19,323 nucleotides of DNA, filler included, from an uncultured Methanosarcinales archaeon (GCA_964589485.1; 2 parts of 2 records of this genome joined end to end with filler, not necessarily neighbours in it); one strand, 5' to 3'; counted from the whole stretch's first letter, positions 1 to 9,910 are shown. Notes: generated by a model from the sequence alone, not told the origin. Numbers and translations: made by a program.

Positions 1-1343
1 TTTTGTTTTTCTTTTAATAATTGTTTTATTTTGCCTAATATTTTGTGTTCTTTATTTTCTTCATCTTCAATTTCTTTTATTATATCGCTTTCTTCAGTTT
101 CAGAACCATTCTCATTTCTTTTCCTTATGAACAATACTAATAATATAATAGCAATTAAACCACCAACTCCACCGCCTAATTCCCATCCTGAGAAACCATC
201 ATCTTTTTCATCTTGTTCTGGAGTTAGGGTAACTTGAGGGTTACTTTTCAAAAAATCATAGTACCTTTGAATGATGTTAATAATACCATTTGCCCAATTT
301 GGATCTTCTTGATTATATAATTGTTGAACATCTTTTACTAATTTAAAAACGTCTTTATGATTTTTGTATGAATCAACATAACTTCTATAGTTTCCTTTAG
401 ATCCATTTTTTAAAGTGATGGTATTTTGATTATACATTTTACTTACAAAACCGTTTACTGAACCTATTTGTGAACTGTACTTTTTACAAGTAGTACCTTC
501 GCAAGGATATCCTTCCTCTCCTTTTTTAGCATGAATTCCAAATAGATTATTACCTTTTGTAATGTACTCTGATTTTTTATTTGCTACGGCCCAACCGCTT
601 TCCCATGCACTAACTGCCATTATATATTCGGAAGGTAAATCTTTATTTAGTGAAAAAAAACTATTAACTGTTTTTCTTTTGTATCCATGATTTTTATTTT
701 CTCTATTAATAAAAGCCCACATTAAATCTGAATTAGATTGAAGTTCATCATCTAAAATAATTTCACTAGGTGTTGTACTCCCGCTTTCAAACTCTTCTTC
801 AACAACTAAACTAGGGGAAGTACTTCCTTCAAAAGTTTCAGTTAAACTTTCTCCAAAGTTATTGGCTAAGTCACCCCAACCGTACAAAAACCCAACCAAT
901 AACACAGTTGTAATTAAAGCTAAAATAAAACTCCATATTCCATTTGCACCCATGCTTTGAAATAATTTAAAAAATAATATAAAAACAGCTAATATGATAA
1001 AAACTCCAGCAACTGGAAATAAATTTTTAACAGTAAGTTTTCCGCTCCAAACTAATGCTAATGATAACGCAAAACCAAAAGTAATTCCTATAACATTCGC
1101 TGAACGAGTATGATTTTCTCCTGCCCATGCTCTTAACCCTATTAAACTAAATGAAGTTAACAATGCAAAAAATACAAAGAAATCAACTACTTTAGTTCCG
1201 GTAGGACCAAGCGTAGTTAAAAATCCACCTAATTTAGCAAACGCTCCTTGAACTGCATTTTTAGATCTACTTATAAAAATAGGTTCAGCTAATACGCTTA
1301 AACTATTTAAAATAACCATTATGACTAATATTATTTTTTTCAT
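1..1343 (-). CDS. Multipass membrane protein with extracellular GH73 (glucosaminidase/FlgJ-like) lysozyme-fold domain; 3'-partial, >=447 aa; absent from ORF track
   Basis: Manual translation from ATG at 1343 is open to the window edge. It shows a signal peptide (MKKIILVIMVILNSLSVLA|EP), 4 hydrophobic helices and an acidic linker. It then reads IMAVSAWESGW (Glu codon 600-602), GNNLFGIH, KKYSSQIGSV and LYNQEDPNWANGIINIIQRY, matching GH73 motifs AxxESGWG / NNLFGIK / YxS / YATDPxYAxKLxxII. A TM helix (GVGGLIAIILLVLFI), RKR and a charged tail follow. Confidence 0.85.
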   Translation of the reverse strand, partial: MKKIILVIMVILNSLSVLAEPIFISRSKNAVQGAFAKLGGFLTTLGPTGTKVVDFFVFFALLTSFSLIGLRAWAGENHTRSANVIGITFGFALSLALVWSGKLTVKNLFPVAGVFIILAVFILFFKLFQSMGANGIWSFILALITTVLLVGFLYGWGDLANNFGESLTETFEGSTSPSLVVEEEFESGSTTPSEIILDDELQSNSDLMWAFINRENKNHGYKRKTVNSFFSLNKDLPSEYIMAVSAWESGWAVANKKSEYITKGNNLFGIHAKKGEEGYPCEGTTCKKYSSQIGSVNGFVSKMYNQNTITLKNGSKGNYRSYVDSYKNHKDVFKLVKDVQQLYNQEDPNWANGIINIIQRYYDFLKSNPQVTLTPEQDEKDDGFSGWELGGGVGGLIAIILLVLFIRKRNENGSETEESDIIKEIEDEENKEHKILGKIKQLLKEKQ

Positions 1344-1344
1344 T

Positions 1345-2481
1345 TTATACTGCTTTATCCATTTCCTCTTCATATTGACCTAAACTTTGCCCAACTTGAT
1401 TCATTGCTTTTGGAACTATTTTTTGAAATTCAGAAATGTCTGAATTTACTTTTTCTATTCTTTTCATGCTAAGATTGATATTTTTATATATCTCTGTAAT
1501 CATTTCTTTTTTAACAACTTTTTCATGATCTTTTAAACTATTAATCCATCCGACAGACTTTGTTATGTATAATGCGTGTTTTTTAATATCTTGATACTTT
1601 AATGCAATTGTTTCTCTTAAACTTTCTAATTGTATTAATTTTTTATCGTAATTTATTAATAACTCTTCTTTTCTAATATTAAACCTAGCTATTTCTTTAA
1701 TTCTTTTCCTACACAGGTTAATAATGCTTTCATTTATTTTTCTTCCTTCATTTTCAATTTTTTGTATTCTTTCTTCTAAAATTTTAGCAATACCTATAGT
1801 GGCATCTCTTTCAGAACTAACTAAATATTTATTATCACTTAATTCGTTTAATTTCTTAGTCATAAAATCTAACCATGCTTGATGATTTTCATGAACATTT
1901 TCTTCTTCATTCAATAATGCGTTTTTAAAACTAGTATCTCCATACTCTTCAAACCTATGGGCTATTGTTCTAATTTGTTTAATAAAATGTTTTCTAAAGA
2001 ATTCCCATTTTTTTTGTTCACCGGACTCTGTTAATTTATCATGTAACTCATTTAAATAATCTAATTCTCTTTGATAAAAGAAAACTCTTTTGAAAAAATT
2101 AGATTTAGTGATTTTTTTAACTAATTTTCTATCTCCCATTTGCGCTAAATGATTAAGGTAATTTCTAATTTCATCTATAAAATGTTGCACTGTTCCAGTA
2201 TGAGTTCCTGATAATAAATTATTTCTAACTTCTTCAAGATATTCCTTTTCATTTTCAGGTGGAAGTTTAAGTTTATTAATTTGTTTAACTAAATTACTTT
2301 CTGGGTTTAGTTTAATTAATTCTTGAATTAATAATTTAACATTAACTGTACCTGATCTAATAACCCCTTTTAACATATTTGATTCATATGAAAATGATAT
2401 ATTCTTAACTTTACTAGTAACTTCTTTGACCTTTTCTAGGTCAACATTTCTCTTTCCTGTGAATATTTCAACTATTTTCAT
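1345..2481 (-). CDS. Hypothetical alpha-helical/coiled-coil protein, 378 aa
   Basis: Long K/E/L/I-rich ORF with heptad-like C-terminal half and no TM or catalytic motif seen. Its stop is 1 nt from the next ATG (1343). Confidence 0.8.
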   Translation of the reverse strand: MKIVEIFTGKRNVDLEKVKEVTSKVKNISFSYESNMLKGVIRSGTVNVKLLIQELIKLNPESNLVKQINKLKLPPENEKEYLEEVRNNLLSGTHTGTVQHFIDEIRNYLNHLAQMGDRKLVKKITKSNFFKRVFFYQRELDYLNELHDKLTESGEQKKWEFFRKHFIKQIRTIAHRFEEYGDTSFKNALLNEEENVHENHQAWLDFMTKKLNELSDNKYLVSSERDATIGIAKILEERIQKIENEGRKINESIINLCRKRIKEIARFNIRKEELLINYDKKLIQLESLRETIALKYQDIKKHALYITKSVGWINSLKDHEKVVKKEMITEIYKNINLSMKRIEKVNSDISEFQKIVPKAMNQVGQSLGQYEEEMDKAV

Positions 2482-2653
2482 TTTTTGATAAGTTTGGGTT
2501 ATTAAAGTTTAAATTTAATGATCTTTCATTTAATTTTTTATCCTTTGTCGATATTGTAATCTCTGGTTCTGTTTGTTGTTTGCTATTAGATGAATGTGTA
2601 AATATTTTTGGTACATTATTAGTATTAAGATCAGTTGTATTCCCATTATCTCC

Positions 2654-4408
2654 TTACTCTACAACAACCTCTTCTTTAACTTCACTTGGTTCAAGAGCCT
2701 TATCACACAAAGCTTTAATTTCTTCTGAAAGATTTTCAATTTCTCTATCTTTTTCATCTCTTTGTGTAATTAGAATATTGATATTTCTATCTTTGTCTGT
2801 GTATTCCCTAGTTAACTCTTGAATAGGTTTTAGGATTTTTTCTAAATCTAACATGTATGCGTTAAAGGTTTCATCTTGTTTTTCTGAAGTAATTTTTTCT
2901 CTTATGATTTCTTGTAAACTTTTTTTAATGTCAATTTCATTACACATATTTCTAAATCCACTTTCATCTAGTTGTGAAATATTTTGTCTTGCGCCCATTG
3001 CTTGATAATTTGTCCAAGCAGTTTTAATAGCGTTAATTCTTTGATTTCCTAAGTCATTCAAGCTTCTATTAAATTTAAATATACTTTTCTTGCTTCCATA
3101 CTTATGTTTATCTATTGAATTTTGAAGTTTGTTACGTTCTTTTTCTAAATTTTTAAATTCTTTAGTTTTTTTCTTAATTTTTTTACTAACTGCACTTTCT
3201 TTTCTAAACCATGCAGCTATATCTAAAAGCTCTTTTGACGTTTTTTTAAGAAAATTCCATGCATTTTTGGCAATTTCTTTAGTATATTTTTGTATTTTTT
3301 GTTTACCTGCTTCTTTAATTGCTTTATTAAATCCAGTATCTAAAGCTCCTGATTCAAAAATTGCACCTAAAAAATAACCCACAATCATATTTCCTATAAA
3401 ATTAGTACTTGGGAACAGTGGAGCTAATGGTTCCCCTCCTATTTTTATTCCGCTTGCAACTCCATGAACTATTGCAAATGATAAAGACCATGCCCATTCC
3501 CATGAGACTGTTTTTTCAAACTTCTTCCTTAATACAAATATGAATAATATGTATGCAATTGATTTTACTGTAGTTAATCCTGTTCCGCCATTAGAAGCCA
3601 TTGCTGCTAAATATATAGCTAAAGCCCAACCAATTCCTTTAGATTCTAATTCAAAATAACCTAACAATAACCATGAATATAATAAAACTGAAATGATAAA
3701 TACGCCTAATGGGTAATGAGTTTCTCCGCCAACAATTGCACTGGTTGCTAAAATACCGTACTTGATATTATCTCCAACATTATAATACCCTGAATGTCCA
3801 GTGCTATCTCTTTCACCAAGTAAAAACTTTTCACCACCAACAATAAACTCCATATCCCAAATATATTCATCTACGTGTTGTGAACCATCAAATGCTGCTG
3901 CATGTGCACTCATTATTGCAATTACAACACTTAACAAAATAAACGCAATTTTGCCAGTATTATCATCTTTAAATGTATCTTTCATAAAAAAACTTTTAAT
4001 AACAACAAAAATCAAGCTAAGTATTGCAATATTAACAATTGGCTTTACTGTTAATCCTCCATCAAACCAATATAACCAACTGATAGATTTATTGCTGTTA
4101 AGAGCTTTATAGATCCATTCTATACTTCCGAATTTGAAACTTAAAACTAAAGATAGTGCTGCTAACATAAAATAAATAATGTATTTTTGTGCATTACCGC
4201 TACTCCAATACCCATTACTTGAATTTAATTGTTCTTTTAATCCAGGAATGAAACTTGATAAAATTAAAATTGCAAAAAATATAATTACAAAGTTTCCAAT
4301 TAATATTCCCCATTTTATTTGACTAAATGTGATGGCTAAAGCAACATTGCTCATTAAAGTAGCAACTATGAAAAACATTACAATTTTTAATAAATTGTTA
4401 TTTTTCAT
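2654..4408 (-). CDS. Multipass membrane protein with C-terminal coiled coil, 584 aa (frame stays open to 2468 past the TAA)
   Basis: Signal-peptide-like N-terminus (..SNVALA), about 9-10 hydrophobic segments in the first ~350 aa, then a K/E-rich coiled coil. ATGA overlap with the ATPase gene at 4405-4408. Confidence 0.85.
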   Translation of the reverse strand: MKNNNLLKIVMFFIVATLMSNVALAITFSQIKWGILIGNFVIIFFAILILSSFIPGLKEQLNSSNGYWSSGNAQKYIIYFMLAALSLVLSFKFGSIEWIYKALNSNKSISWLYWFDGGLTVKPIVNIAILSLIFVVIKSFFMKDTFKDDNTGKIAFILLSVVIAIMSAHAAAFDGSQHVDEYIWDMEFIVGGEKFLLGERDSTGHSGYYNVGDNIKYGILATSAIVGGETHYPLGVFIISVLLYSWLLLGYFELESKGIGWALAIYLAAMASNGGTGLTTVKSIAYILFIFVLRKKFEKTVSWEWAWSLSFAIVHGVASGIKIGGEPLAPLFPSTNFIGNMIVGYFLGAIFESGALDTGFNKAIKEAGKQKIQKYTKEIAKNAWNFLKKTSKELLDIAAWFRKESAVSKKIKKKTKEFKNLEKERNKLQNSIDKHKYGSKKSIFKFNRSLNDLGNQRINAIKTAWTNYQAMGARQNISQLDESGFRNMCNEIDIKKSLQEIIREKITSEKQDETFNAYMLDLEKILKPIQELTREYTDKDRNINILITQRDEKDREIENLSEEIKALCDKALEPSEVKEEVVVE

Positions 4409-5508
4409 TTTAGTTCCTCTTTTGAAATATTTTTTGAATCTAAAACTAATACATGATAAATGTAAAATTGCATTACTTCTTCTGAAATAGAGAAATATTT
4501 GTCATTTTTAGAAATTAAATCAACTTCCAATAATCGATCTACTAAACTTTTTGTAACTGGTCCGCTTCTATATATTTTTGAAGCAATTTCTGTTAACCTT
4601 AATGGTTTATTTTGAGCTAAAACTTTAAGAATATTAAATAAGAGCGTTTGTCCTCTTGCTCTAGAAAGATTTTCATGAAGCGAAAAACGCAAGGCATTAT
4701 AAATAATACCTTGTTCATTTAACACTTCATGAATGTACGCTTTATCTACAGATTTTAACTCTTTGTATTTATTACAAATTGCTAAGGTAAACATGGGGAT
4801 TCCATTAGATAAAGCATATATTCTGTCAACCTCTTTTTCCCCAGTGATTTTGAATTTATTAGTTAATTGTTTTACAGTTTCTCTGTCAAATTCATTCATG
4901 GTTTCTGTTTTTAATTTTAATTTTTGAGAAATAGTTGTCATTTCGTATTTAGCGCTACTACTACAAACTAAATTAGTTTTTTTCCAATTTAAATTAATTA
5001 TAGATAATATGTCTTTAATTTGTAAGAAATTATTAAATTCAAGTATTTTATGAAACTCGTCCAGAAAAAGCATGCAATGAAAATCATCTTCTTGAGCCCA
5101 TTTATCTAGAAATGAAAAACTCCACTCAATTAATTTCTGTTGATTTGGTTTAATTTTTTCTAGTTCGTTTTTAATCTCTTTTACTATACTTAATCCAGGA
5201 AATTTTAATTTTAAGATTTCTTCGAATGTTAATTTTTCATTTTTAATTTGAGAAACACATTTTTCAATAAATTCAACTGAAAAACTTTCTGGGCTTAAAC
5301 TAATTTTTTCTAAGTCGACATAAACATTTTTTATGTCTTTATTTTTAAGAATTATTTGTTTTATTGTACTTGTTTTACCAATATTTCTATTCCCTATAAT
5401 TGCACTATGAGAAATGTGACCTTTTTTTAGATTTTCTTTATTTTTTCTAAATAACTCTAAGAAATACTCTCTTCCTGTAAATAATTCGTTTGTTTCCAAT
5501 ATTTCCAT
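4405..5508 (-). CDS. Archaeal ATPase (ATPase_2/AAA-type P-loop) with C-terminal winged helix-turn-helix
   Basis: N-terminal FTGRE, Walker A GNRNIGKTS, Walker B MLFLDEFH and GIP motif. The C-terminal ILKVLAQNKPLRLTEIASKIYRSGPVTKSLVDRLLEVDLISKNDKYF is a typical wHTH. Confidence 0.88.
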   Translation of the reverse strand: MEILETNELFTGREYFLELFRKNKENLKKGHISHSAIIGNRNIGKTSTIKQIILKNKDIKNVYVDLEKISLSPESFSVEFIEKCVSQIKNEKLTFEEILKLKFPGLSIVKEIKNELEKIKPNQQKLIEWSFSFLDKWAQEDDFHCMLFLDEFHKILEFNNFLQIKDILSIINLNWKKTNLVCSSSAKYEMTTISQKLKLKTETMNEFDRETVKQLTNKFKITGEKEVDRIYALSNGIPMFTLAICNKYKELKSVDKAYIHEVLNEQGIIYNALRFSLHENLSRARGQTLLFNILKVLAQNKPLRLTEIASKIYRSGPVTKSLVDRLLEVDLISKNDKYFSISEEVMQFYIYHVLVLDSKNISKEELK

Positions 5509-5550
5509 CTTTAATTATACCAATTGGCATTAAACTTAATCTATATTCTT

Positions 5551-5565
5551 CTATTTAAATGTTTG
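5551..5565 (-). promoter_or_regulatory. BRE/TATA promoter of the ATPase operon
   Basis: Minus strand CAAACATTTAAATAG, with TATA box at 5559-5552, about 44 nt upstream of ATG 5508. Confidence 0.55.
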
Positions 5566-5588
5566 TTTTTTAGTCGACAATTTTTATT

Positions 5589-5642
5589 AAAAAAATAAAA
5601 AAAGTGCCTTGAAATTTGGGGGTAGGTATATTTTCAAGGCAC
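5589..5642 (-). terminator. 11-bp stem hairpin followed by U-tract (intrinsic terminator-like)
   Basis: GTGCCTTGAAA (5604-5614) pairs with TTTCAAGGCAC (5632-5642). On the minus strand it is followed by T7-A-T7 (5603-5589), and the loop contains CCTACCCCC. Confidence 0.6.
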
Positions 5643-5690
5643 AAAATTAAATGTGCTTTTAGTATTTATACCATTTAGTATATTTCTTAT

Positions 5691-5848: not shown

Positions 5849-6106
5849 ATGAAAGGTTTAATACAAAGTTACAGAAGAAGTAAGCATTGTCAGACACCAA
5901 ATCAAGTTATTGTTCTGGTACCAAGCGTTGACACTAAAGAAAAAGCAAAAGAGTTTGTAGGAAAGAAAGTAACATGGACAACTCCTGCAAAAAACGTTAT
6001 TAACGGTGAAGTTAGATCTTCGCATGGTAATTCTGGTGCAATAAGAGTATTATTTGAGAAAGGTATGCCTGGTCAATGTTTAGCAACTGAAGTTCAAATC
6101 GAATAG
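5849..6106 (+). CDS. rpl35ae: 50S ribosomal protein L35Ae (eL33)
   Basis: 85 aa with the family signature SYRRSKH.Q.PNQ ... GKKV.W ... G.V...HGNSGAIRV.F.KGMPGQ. Confidence 0.96.
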   Translation: MKGLIQSYRRSKHCQTPNQVIVLVPSVDTKEKAKEFVGKKVTWTTPAKNVINGEVRSSHGNSGAIRVLFEKGMPGQCLATEVQIE

Positions 6107-9810: not shown

Positions 9811-9910
9811 NNNNNNNNNNNNNNNNNNNNNNNNNNNNNNNNNNNNNNNNNNNNTTAATTAATTAANNNNNNNNNNNNNNNNNNNNNNNNNNNNNNNNNN
9901 NNNNNNNNNN
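9811..9910. other. Assembly gap with artificial TTAATTAATTAA six-frame stop linker
   Basis: 44 N, then TTAATTAATTAA (9855-9866), then 44 N, exactly 100 nt in total. Confidence 0.97.

Follow-up and report, generated by a model that had tools for sequence, protein, structure and literature searches.

A conserved, so far undescribed four-gene membrane and coiled-coil module in Woesearchaeales-type DPANN archaea

The DNA stretch analysed here (the window, 19,323 nucleotides (nt) long, filler included) comes from the genome GCA_964589485.1, deposited as an uncultured Methanosarcinales archaeon, which is 1.16 Mb in size with 27-28% G+C. At its left end the window carries four genes that we call A, B, C and D. 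A-B-C-D is a conserved, so far undescribed, lineage-specific module of Woesearchaeales-type DPANN archaea, and we document its gene order, its conservation, its domain content and the relationship between the B and D proteins. Our tentative reading of its function, with the balance still somewhat against it, is a surface complex which presents variable ectodomains on a cytoplasmic scaffold. An earlier reading of the sequence alone (the sequence-only reading) had proposed an operon for a wall-hydrolysing apparatus on a membrane/coiled-coil scaffold; we keep its attributes “regulated”, “trans-envelope” and “penetration” in the conditional. All four open reading frames (ORFs) were found co-oriented on the minus strand, as it had described, with the ATGA overlap between A and B at 4405-4408. 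The features of the module in the window are as follows (aa, amino acids; TM, transmembrane).

4405-5508, minus strand: gene A, the first gene of the module; 367 aa, an ATPase with a P-loop (PF01637/AAA_14 type), predicted to be cytoplasmic, its C-terminal part a winged helix
2654-4408, minus strand: gene B; 584 aa, with signal peptide, nine TM helices, beta-hairpin ectodomain and antiparallel coiled-coil tail, predicted to be cytoplasmic
2473-2653, minus strand: stop-free extension of the B frame past its TAA; 60 sense codons, the TGA at its end overlapping the start of C
1345-2481, minus strand: gene C; 378 aa, soluble, charged, helical, of coiled-coil type, without TM segment
3-1373, minus strand: gene D, running off the left edge, with 457 of its 1045 residues in the window; in order, signal peptide and 4-TM module, acidic linker, GH73 ectodomain, fifth TM segment and the beginning of a charged, predicted cytoplasmic tail
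864-1373, minus strand: D residues 1-170, signal peptide and the 4-TM module held in common with the N-terminal half of B
258-641, minus strand: D residues 245-372, GH73 N-acetylglucosaminidase domain (PF01832), predicted to face outward
120-188, minus strand: D residues ~396-418, last TM segment as read from the sequence, followed by RKRN and the tail predicted to be cytoplasmic

The profile of B matched 41 of the 401 sampled genomes of the order (29 of 258 genera) and that of A matched 43. Both genes were present in 36 genomes and adjacent on one contig in 35 of these, the exception being G377, where B stands at the contig start. B alone was detected in five genomes and A alone in seven, and in three of the latter (G017, G169 and G187) a better profile revealed B beside A. 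The unpublished genomes G374 and G210 are counted in these numbers, G374 among the 35 adjacent pairs. In a phylum-wide sample of 401 genomes, all 24 genomes with a match carried the label of the same order. Two genomes of one genus, G179 and G241, each have two separate A-B pairs on different contigs.

We compared the gene neighbourhoods in 22 genome loci (two congeners and 20 other B-bearing genomes, selected by score and contig size, unpublished genomes excluded), in which ORFs were labelled with iterated local profiles. The order A>B>C>D recurs across many families: C follows B in 16 of the 22 loci, and a D-family gene is also present in 16, a count that includes the D gene of the congener G001, recognised by BLAST and Pfam; several contigs stop before D. 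Among 80 metagenome loci anchored on A, 69 include a gene after A, which is B in 66 of them, and a C-family label was given in 36 of the 80, most of the others being short. These data show that the homologues are co-located elsewhere, and the expectation on which the sequence-only reading had staked its proposal is borne out. After the module, three distant loci (L040, L053 and L048, of genomes G194, G369 and G028) have very large proteins of 1355-1625 aa or a neighbour with a Metallophos domain, of calcineurin-like phosphoesterase type.

The chromosomal site is also recurrent. The gene for ribosomal protein L35Ae lies within ~2 kb upstream of A in loci L041, L042, L044, L046 and L050, which represent three further families, so that with this genome the neighbour is found in six loci of four families; TctA flanks the module in this genome, in G263 and in the two congeners. 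Identity between members of the genus amounts to 70-80% in the flanks, but to 50% in A, 31-38% in B, 30% in C and 36-40% in the N-terminal part of D. The region from 3.5 kb upstream of B to 7.5 kb downstream of it contained 331 called ORFs, and Pfam scans of 158 of these neighbours detected no integrase, relaxase, coupling protein or VirB4-type gene. The module looks vertically inherited, often lost and fast evolving.

The description of A as an ATPase held up in the domain searches, and the winged helix-turn-helix (wHTH) ascribed to it is a putative one. A matches AAA_14 (E 1.4e-6, 28.8 bits, above the cut-off of 27) and ATPase_2/PF01637 (6.3e-7, 29.9 bits, below the cut-off of 33.2; the A orthologue of G001 passes it with 41.0 bits), and the MarR-like winged helix is matched at E 4.5e-4 with 20.5 bits, below the curated cut-off of 24.6, its motif being strongly conserved. 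The Walker motifs in this genome are GNRNIGKT and LFLDE. In the family, the Walker A glycine is present in 18 of 18 proteins and the lysine in 16; the Walker B aspartate is present in 13 of 18, and the next position is glutamate in only five and asparagine in eight, which suggests that hydrolysis may be lost in many members. Invariance is highest in the winged helix (R314, V318, K320 and R325; also V329). Together with the frequently missing Walker B glutamate, this is easier to reconcile with an ATP-binding switch than with a motor. The 118 homologues of A are ~200-640 aa long and have either no name or “ATP-binding protein”, the named ones being assigned to “Candidatus Woesearchaeota”, “Pacearchaeota”, “Nanoarchaeota” and “Nanoarchaeia” archaea. 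Searches of A found no match among PDB sequences and no relative in the viral-contig collection.

The same features of A are what would be expected if it were merely the transcription factor of the operon, with B, C and D as co-expressed surface or structural proteins that form no single machine, and the extra small wHTH genes which we observed in several clusters point the same way. We regard this as hardly probable, however, since A and B are neighbours almost without exception and the stop codon of one overlaps the start codon of the other in this genome, the probable paralogues B and D are kept together, and the A>B>C>D order is fixed across many families.

The membrane proteins B and D share their N-terminal organisation. 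Only the first ~200 residues are common to the D family; in them a signal peptide precedes a short helix on the outer side and four TM segments, and D64, F68 and A152 are invariant. Comparison of the two family profiles by hhalign aligned residues 18-172 of B with residues 27-160 of D (probability 93.9%, E 1.6e-7), and this match of the 4-TM modules suggests that B and D are probably paralogues. The cleaved signal peptide and the even number of TM segments would place the region after TM4 outside in both proteins; in D, one more TM segment followed by RKRN would return the long tail to the inside. Signal peptides, the hydropathy count and the AlphaFold2 model are thus consistent with the GH73 domain lying outside and the coiled-coil tails inside. 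By hydropathy and composition, the tails of B and D are charged and proline-poor, and C has no TM segment and is helical with 33% charged residues, in agreement with the sequence-only reading, which had seen two multipass membrane proteins with charged tails and one soluble coiled-coil protein.

Neither B nor C matched any family above the cut-off in Pfam or NCBIfam. B belongs to a rare family: a word-based search found one non-self relative in the word-indexed set of 5.8 billion proteins, 18 matches at E<=1e-3 were obtained among 1.84 billion representatives, and a single-sequence search of the genome contigs found nothing. The family alignment includes 15 of these 18 sequences, omitting P0014 (a 173-aa piece), P0017 (tail only) and P0018 (E 6.9e-4). 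With 30 family sequences, the AlphaFold2 model of B residues 1-400 reached a predicted local distance difference test (pLDDT) score of 83.4 and a predicted template modelling (pTM) score of 0.61, the full-length model a pLDDT of 75.9. The 1-400 model has a signal-peptide-like helix, nine TM helices and short beta hairpins at 208-231, after TM4; this post-TM4 loop (predicted ectodomain, ~173-232) contains the most conserved residues of the family, W184, G198 and Y209. The tail (~407-572) is modelled as a long antiparallel helical hairpin, and by eye the tails of other members are coiled coils or zinc ribbons, one of them with an FHA plus a J domain-like segment.

The 1-400 model had no Foldseek match at E<=0.001 in PDB or BFVD, and its best VIA-align hit had Z 6.1 over 60 residues. 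The full-length model also gave no Foldseek match at E<=0.001, and its structural matches were generic coiled-coil hairpins only, at residues 400-581 (best Z 11.9); ESM Atlas returned no usable match. As modelled, the membrane domain of B is without a convincing structural relative among solved or viral folds.

D is the product that carries GH73, as the sequence-only reading had stated: PF01832 is matched at 2.4e-11 with 44.8 bits (cut-off 30.2), and with 48 bits in the genome search. E258 in AWESGW, together with NLFG, aligns with the second GH73 of the genome, and Y353, D357 and P358 correspond in the alignment to the Y..DP of PDB 5t1q. We take E258 of the ESGW-type motif and the Y..DP motif to be the catalytic motifs of GH73, so that D can be called a putative hydrolase with its motif residues in place. 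Its only match among PDB sequences was a weak one to GH73 (E 0.094), a sequence search with the GH73 region found none at E<=1e-5, and in PHROGs the domain matched an endolysin family, no other match being obtained from the module proteins. The second GH73 protein of the genome is very different (G000:C1:16566-18551, minus strand (L062:7567-9552), 661 aa, PF01832 2.4e-24); by eye, its N-terminus, KKGG followed by a hydrophobic stretch, is like an archaeal pilin-type signal, and its gene adjoins an RPA-like OB-fold gene.

The genome, with an estimated completeness of 99.9%, had no PBP transpeptidase and no SEDS polymerase, and one match of Mur-ligase type. Since no murein polymerisation genes were seen, the GH73 domain of D should act on foreign murein, and since it is predicted to be tethered to the membrane on both sides, it would act only on a bacterial sacculus in direct contact.

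The position of GH73 in D is a variable slot. A peptidoglycan-directed domain was found at this same position in 4 of the 18 genome-derived D proteins, one per line below.

This genome: GH73
Orthologue in the congener G001: SLT (7.6e-5)
G040: SLT and peptidase M23
D-family protein of G121: OmpA-type peptidoglycan-binding domain (5.2e-8, above cut-off)

In several other D proteins the ectodomain is rich in cysteine or shows nothing that could be recognised. No peptidoglycan-directed domain was found at E<=0.001 in six additional membrane candidates of the metagenome loci, and 26 large proteins encoded after C in these loci had no Pfam domain. OmpA-like segments noticed by eye in D of L039 and L045, and an SLT-like one in G002, were rejected, as they had no Pfam support even at E<=1.

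These data suggest the following arrangement. B and D would be paralogous subunits that stand together in the membrane, with the same 4-TM start and with long cytoplasmic coiled-coil tails; to this, B would add a small conserved beta-hairpin ectodomain and five TM helices, and D a slot after TM4, on the outer face, which would be filled with a different ectodomain in each lineage. C would bundle with the tails of B and D into a cytoplasmic coiled-coil scaffold, which two downstream coiled-coil proteins of this genus probably join. A would be the ATP-binding switch, with a role in control of the operon or else as a gate for assembly at the tails. Here, GH73 would act on a bacterial wall pressed to the archaeal surface, which would amount to contact-dependent binding or cutting of the sacculus of a partner or prey. 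The topology, the formation of a complex, the role of A and the target are all predicted in this scheme.

Several points weigh against it. The hhalign comparison between membrane-protein profiles can be inflated by common hydrophobic composition, the iterated profiles of C and D can drift on coiled-coil and TM sequence, and the winged helix of A may mark an ordinary operon regulator. A peptidoglycan-directed domain was missing at E<=0.001 from all 18 D-labelled metagenome proteins, of which at least seven are short or cut by the locus end, and the core function may be unrelated to bacterial walls. Moreover, SLT domains were detected in 219 of the order's 401 sampled genomes; the proteins that carry them often have 800-2400 aa, and most of the domains lie on contigs other than that of the module. 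As the module is in 41 genomes, wall attack, if real, would proceed without need of it. The claim of the sequence-only reading that wall hydrolysis is a defining part of the system has therefore to be given up: the domains in D are in the minority and varied and SLT occurs elsewhere, so that the hydrolase is better seen as an exchangeable head of D in some lineages.

The rarity of peptidoglycan domains suits another explanation, namely an internal membrane-organising or cytoskeletal scaffold concerned with shape, division, vesicles or membrane domains, in which the ectodomains of D are accessory anchors and GH73 is a late add-on of one genus. Most of the coding length is cytoplasmic coiled coil, as predicted for the B tail, C, the 625-aa D tail and the 310-aa and 212-aa proteins encoded downstream; the large post-C metagenome proteins are without a Pfam domain, and the site beside housekeeping genes is stable. 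However, the module is present in about one tenth of the sampled genomes, which would be odd for basic cell biology, its components diverge much faster than the flanks, and B has a conserved hairpin domain predicted to face outward. This alternative is a doubtful one, though it deserves serious attention.

The claim that the module matches no recognised secretion system proved right: searches of Pfam, NCBIfam, PADLOC and PHROGs gave no match that would place its proteins in a family of secretion or defence. No module member had an informative name in the databases searched. As no known secretion, division or defence system has the same parts, we rate the module as a new kind of system, and comparison with the nearest ones shows where it departs from them.

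In bacterial FtsEX-EnvC-amidase/LytM systems, nucleotide-binding, polytopic membrane, coiled-coil and wall-hydrolase proteins work as one unit, and the module has the same four kinds of protein. In contrast, A is not an ABC ATPase, the coiled coils of the module are predicted to be cytoplasmic, not periplasmic, and no murein synthesis genes were seen. The FtsEX-EnvC chains gave coiled-coil matches only with the full-length B model (Z 9.4), with no sequence or fold relationship.

In Zorya, the ZorAB membrane complex extends a very long coiled coil into the cell, has a peptidoglycan-directed outer domain and is coupled to cytoplasmic P-loop proteins. The module resembles it in joining membrane proteins, a long coiled coil, a peptidoglycan-directed domain predicted to lie outside and a P-loop protein, and may by the same logic be an envelope-linked conflict or defence sensor, for example of virus entry, with coiled-coil signalling to A. 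Such a sensor would account for the patchy distribution (41 of 401), fast divergence and the variable head domain beside a constant STAND-like P-loop partner, as well as for the two genomes with two copies. On the other hand, PADLOC-DB 2.0 gave no significant match to module proteins: the best were weak (E 3.2e-4 to 2.6e-3) and confined to coiled-coil or P-loop stretches, among them one of C residues 166-372 with the tail region of the ZorA model (E 0.0015). Besides, the module has no MotA/ExbB Pfam match and no ZorC/D-type effector, the Pfam scans of the clusters revealed neither a nuclease nor any other effector domain, the site next to rpl35ae is a conserved one and not a variable island, and there were no viral-contig relatives. 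We therefore consider a defence role decidedly unlikely.

Gram-positive conjugation uses VirB1-type hydrolases and VirB6-type proteins (PrgK, TcpG, CwlT), in which TM-anchored GH73, SLT or M23 domains stand by a polytopic protein with a cytoplasmic extension. By analogy, the predicted anchored GH73, SLT and SLT plus M23 domains of D beside the polytopic B might recall these hydrolases, and one metagenome D protein has a weak match to a mobile-element family (CD1107-like, 4.8e-4). The module could then be a remnant or variant of a conjugation-like transfer apparatus, with D as the VirB1-type hydrolase and B as the VirB6-type channel subunit. This is very improbable, because a VirB4-type ATPase is absent from the cluster and PF03135 is unmatched in the whole genome, the scanned neighbourhoods have no relaxase, integrase or coupling protein, the site and flanks are stable, the viral-contig collection yielded no relatives, and the PHROG match concerns GH73 only. 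VirD4 ATPase, mobile-element context and a fold match of B are likewise missing; the listed Foldseek and VIA-align matches of the B model, which speak for the listed families alone, included no VirB6-type fold.

In the literature, a full-text search, which covered main texts, found no description of an ATPase-B-C-D module, and the accessible text of a study of archaeal “dark matter” (PMC6393860) makes no mention of one. According to the accessible texts, the murein hydrolases known from Woesearchaeota and Pacearchaeota are extracellular SLT/GH23 proteins of large size, with bacteria as their possible target (PMC8204110, PMC9723730, PMC10936187), and the frequency of SLT that we observed in the order is far above the few cases given there. 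Action on bacterial walls has also been proposed for the murein hydrolases of these archaea in the accessible parts of PMC8204110, PMC9723730 and PMC12352652.

The woesearchaeal SLT/GH23 proteins (2021, PMC8204110; Vigneron et al. 2022, PMC9723730) are among those closest to D, as these sources describe organisms of the same group, an outward wall hydrolase and a proposed binding or degrading of the wall of a bacterial partner. However, those are single very large proteins, for which the accessible texts mention no ATPase, coiled-coil or B-type partner, whereas D has a GH73 domain inside a polytopic subunit of a four-gene module. Judged by the domain criterion alone against fam00969, the woesearchaeal family of large murein transglycosylases with an SLT/GH23 domain in a very large extracellular protein, D has GH73 and not SLT, and the genome has no SLT match at E<=0.01; the SLT domain of fam00969 is also found in the D proteins of G001 and G040.

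The available part of PMC12352652 reports that Woldo and Danwoldo of Halogranum salarium, secreted peptidoglycan hydrolases, were shown experimentally to kill bacteria. The likeness consists in an archaeon without murein that has PF01832 or a related hydrolase aimed at bacteria. As described in that part, Woldo and Danwoldo are soluble, Tat-secreted and equipped with peptidoglycan-binding domains, in contrast to D, which is predicted to be tethered on both sides with a 625-aa cytoplasmic tail and so could not diffuse.

A more specific form of the surface-complex reading is that the module is a contact organelle of a new type with which Woesearchaeales-type DPANN archaea dock to other cells, and gives a first molecular access to this docking. 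Two paralogous membrane subunits, whose fold is without a solved relative, would carry exchangeable “warheads” (wall hydrolases, wall-binding domains, cysteine-rich adhesins) outside, a coiled-coil lattice put together by an ATP-bound winged-helix switch would brace them inside, and in this genus the organelle would open the murein of a bacterial host. We think this unlikely. If it were true, these archaea would be contact-dependent parasites or predators of bacteria. We know of no Woesearchaeota-type archaeon cultured with a known partner. Should the complex mark the site of contact, hosts could be traced in natural samples with antibodies or tags directed at B and D. The question of a life on bacteria has been raised for Woesearchaeota from the presence of murein hydrolases alone, according to the accessible texts of PMC8204110 and PMC9723730. 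The module offers testable parts: a putative tethered enzyme, a membrane partner without a known fold and a constant ATP-binding partner. If the link to peptidoglycan is incidental, it is still a conserved four-protein membrane/coiled-coil system limited to one archaeal order.

The window joins the contigs C21 (1-9810) and C22 (from ~9911) through a run of N (9811-9910), and the four-gene cluster sits wholly within C21. The gene for a 1884-aa Ig-domain surface protein and its neighbours beyond 9910 are therefore not shown to be adjacent to the module. The left edge of C21 is a contig end whose first 55 nt are identical to the last 55 nt of contig C11, and none of the other contig ends of the genome fits it. 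Across this overlap D is stop-free with 1045 aa, and 40% of its final 625 residues are charged; in addition, a 9818-nt contig of one public run reaches 9250 nt to the left of position 1. The left flank was thus retrieved, and the suspicion of the sequence-only reading that the module continues beyond the left edge proved well founded. Downstream of D, C11 has four further genes in the same direction.

310-aa charged helical protein
G000:C11:32159-32545 (L061:5160-5546), minus strand: 128-aa protein with four TM segments
212-aa charged helical protein
PAC2 proteasome-chaperone gene

The 128-aa protein of this genome is 71-74% identical to those of the congeners, and identity among the three congeners is 71-82%, far above the surrounding module proteins; it matched no family, and no counterpart was seen in the 20 distant loci.

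The junctions between the genes were partly as the sequence-only reading had given them. The gap of 1 nt between C and D is real if D starts at ATG 1343, but becomes a 29-nt overlap if it starts at ATG 1373, which is equally likely because the orthologues have 10-15 residues ahead of the hydrophobic stretch. The B-C gap (2482-2653, 172 nt) is indeed spanned by an open frame, but this frame belongs to B and not to C, whose own frame has three stops there. On shuffling, this stretch was stop-free in no more than 49 of 20000 cases. An assembly error at the B stop codon was ruled out, as contigs of three public runs have the same letters across the TAA (2654-2656) and the following stretch. The B stop is therefore real, and the gap resembles a recently cut-off or read-through end of B. 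A read-through B would have ~645 aa, similar to the B of G002, which has 645 aa and overlaps C at its end; the two genes either adjoin or overlap in the congeners. The post-stop stretch is polar and N-rich, and may reflect a recent truncation or stop read-through. The public runs that hold this DNA are marine or seawater metagenomes, and no RNA run was listed among those for positions 1-5600.

Upstream of A, the following features were found.

5552-5559, minus strand: TTTAAATA, a TATA-box-like octamer as read from the sequence, 44 nt upstream of the ATG of A in a very A+T-rich region
5600-5650, minus strand: inverted repeat GTGCCTTGAAA...TTTCAAGGCAC followed by a T run, between rpl35ae and A
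5849-6106, plus strand: gene for ribosomal protein L35Ae (PF01247, 5.3e-17), divergent from A and upstream of it

Elsewhere in the genome, an 805-aa ORF (G000:C1:13127-15544, minus strand (L062:4128-6545)) joins the PyrB catalytic and PyrI regulatory domains in an apparent fusion.

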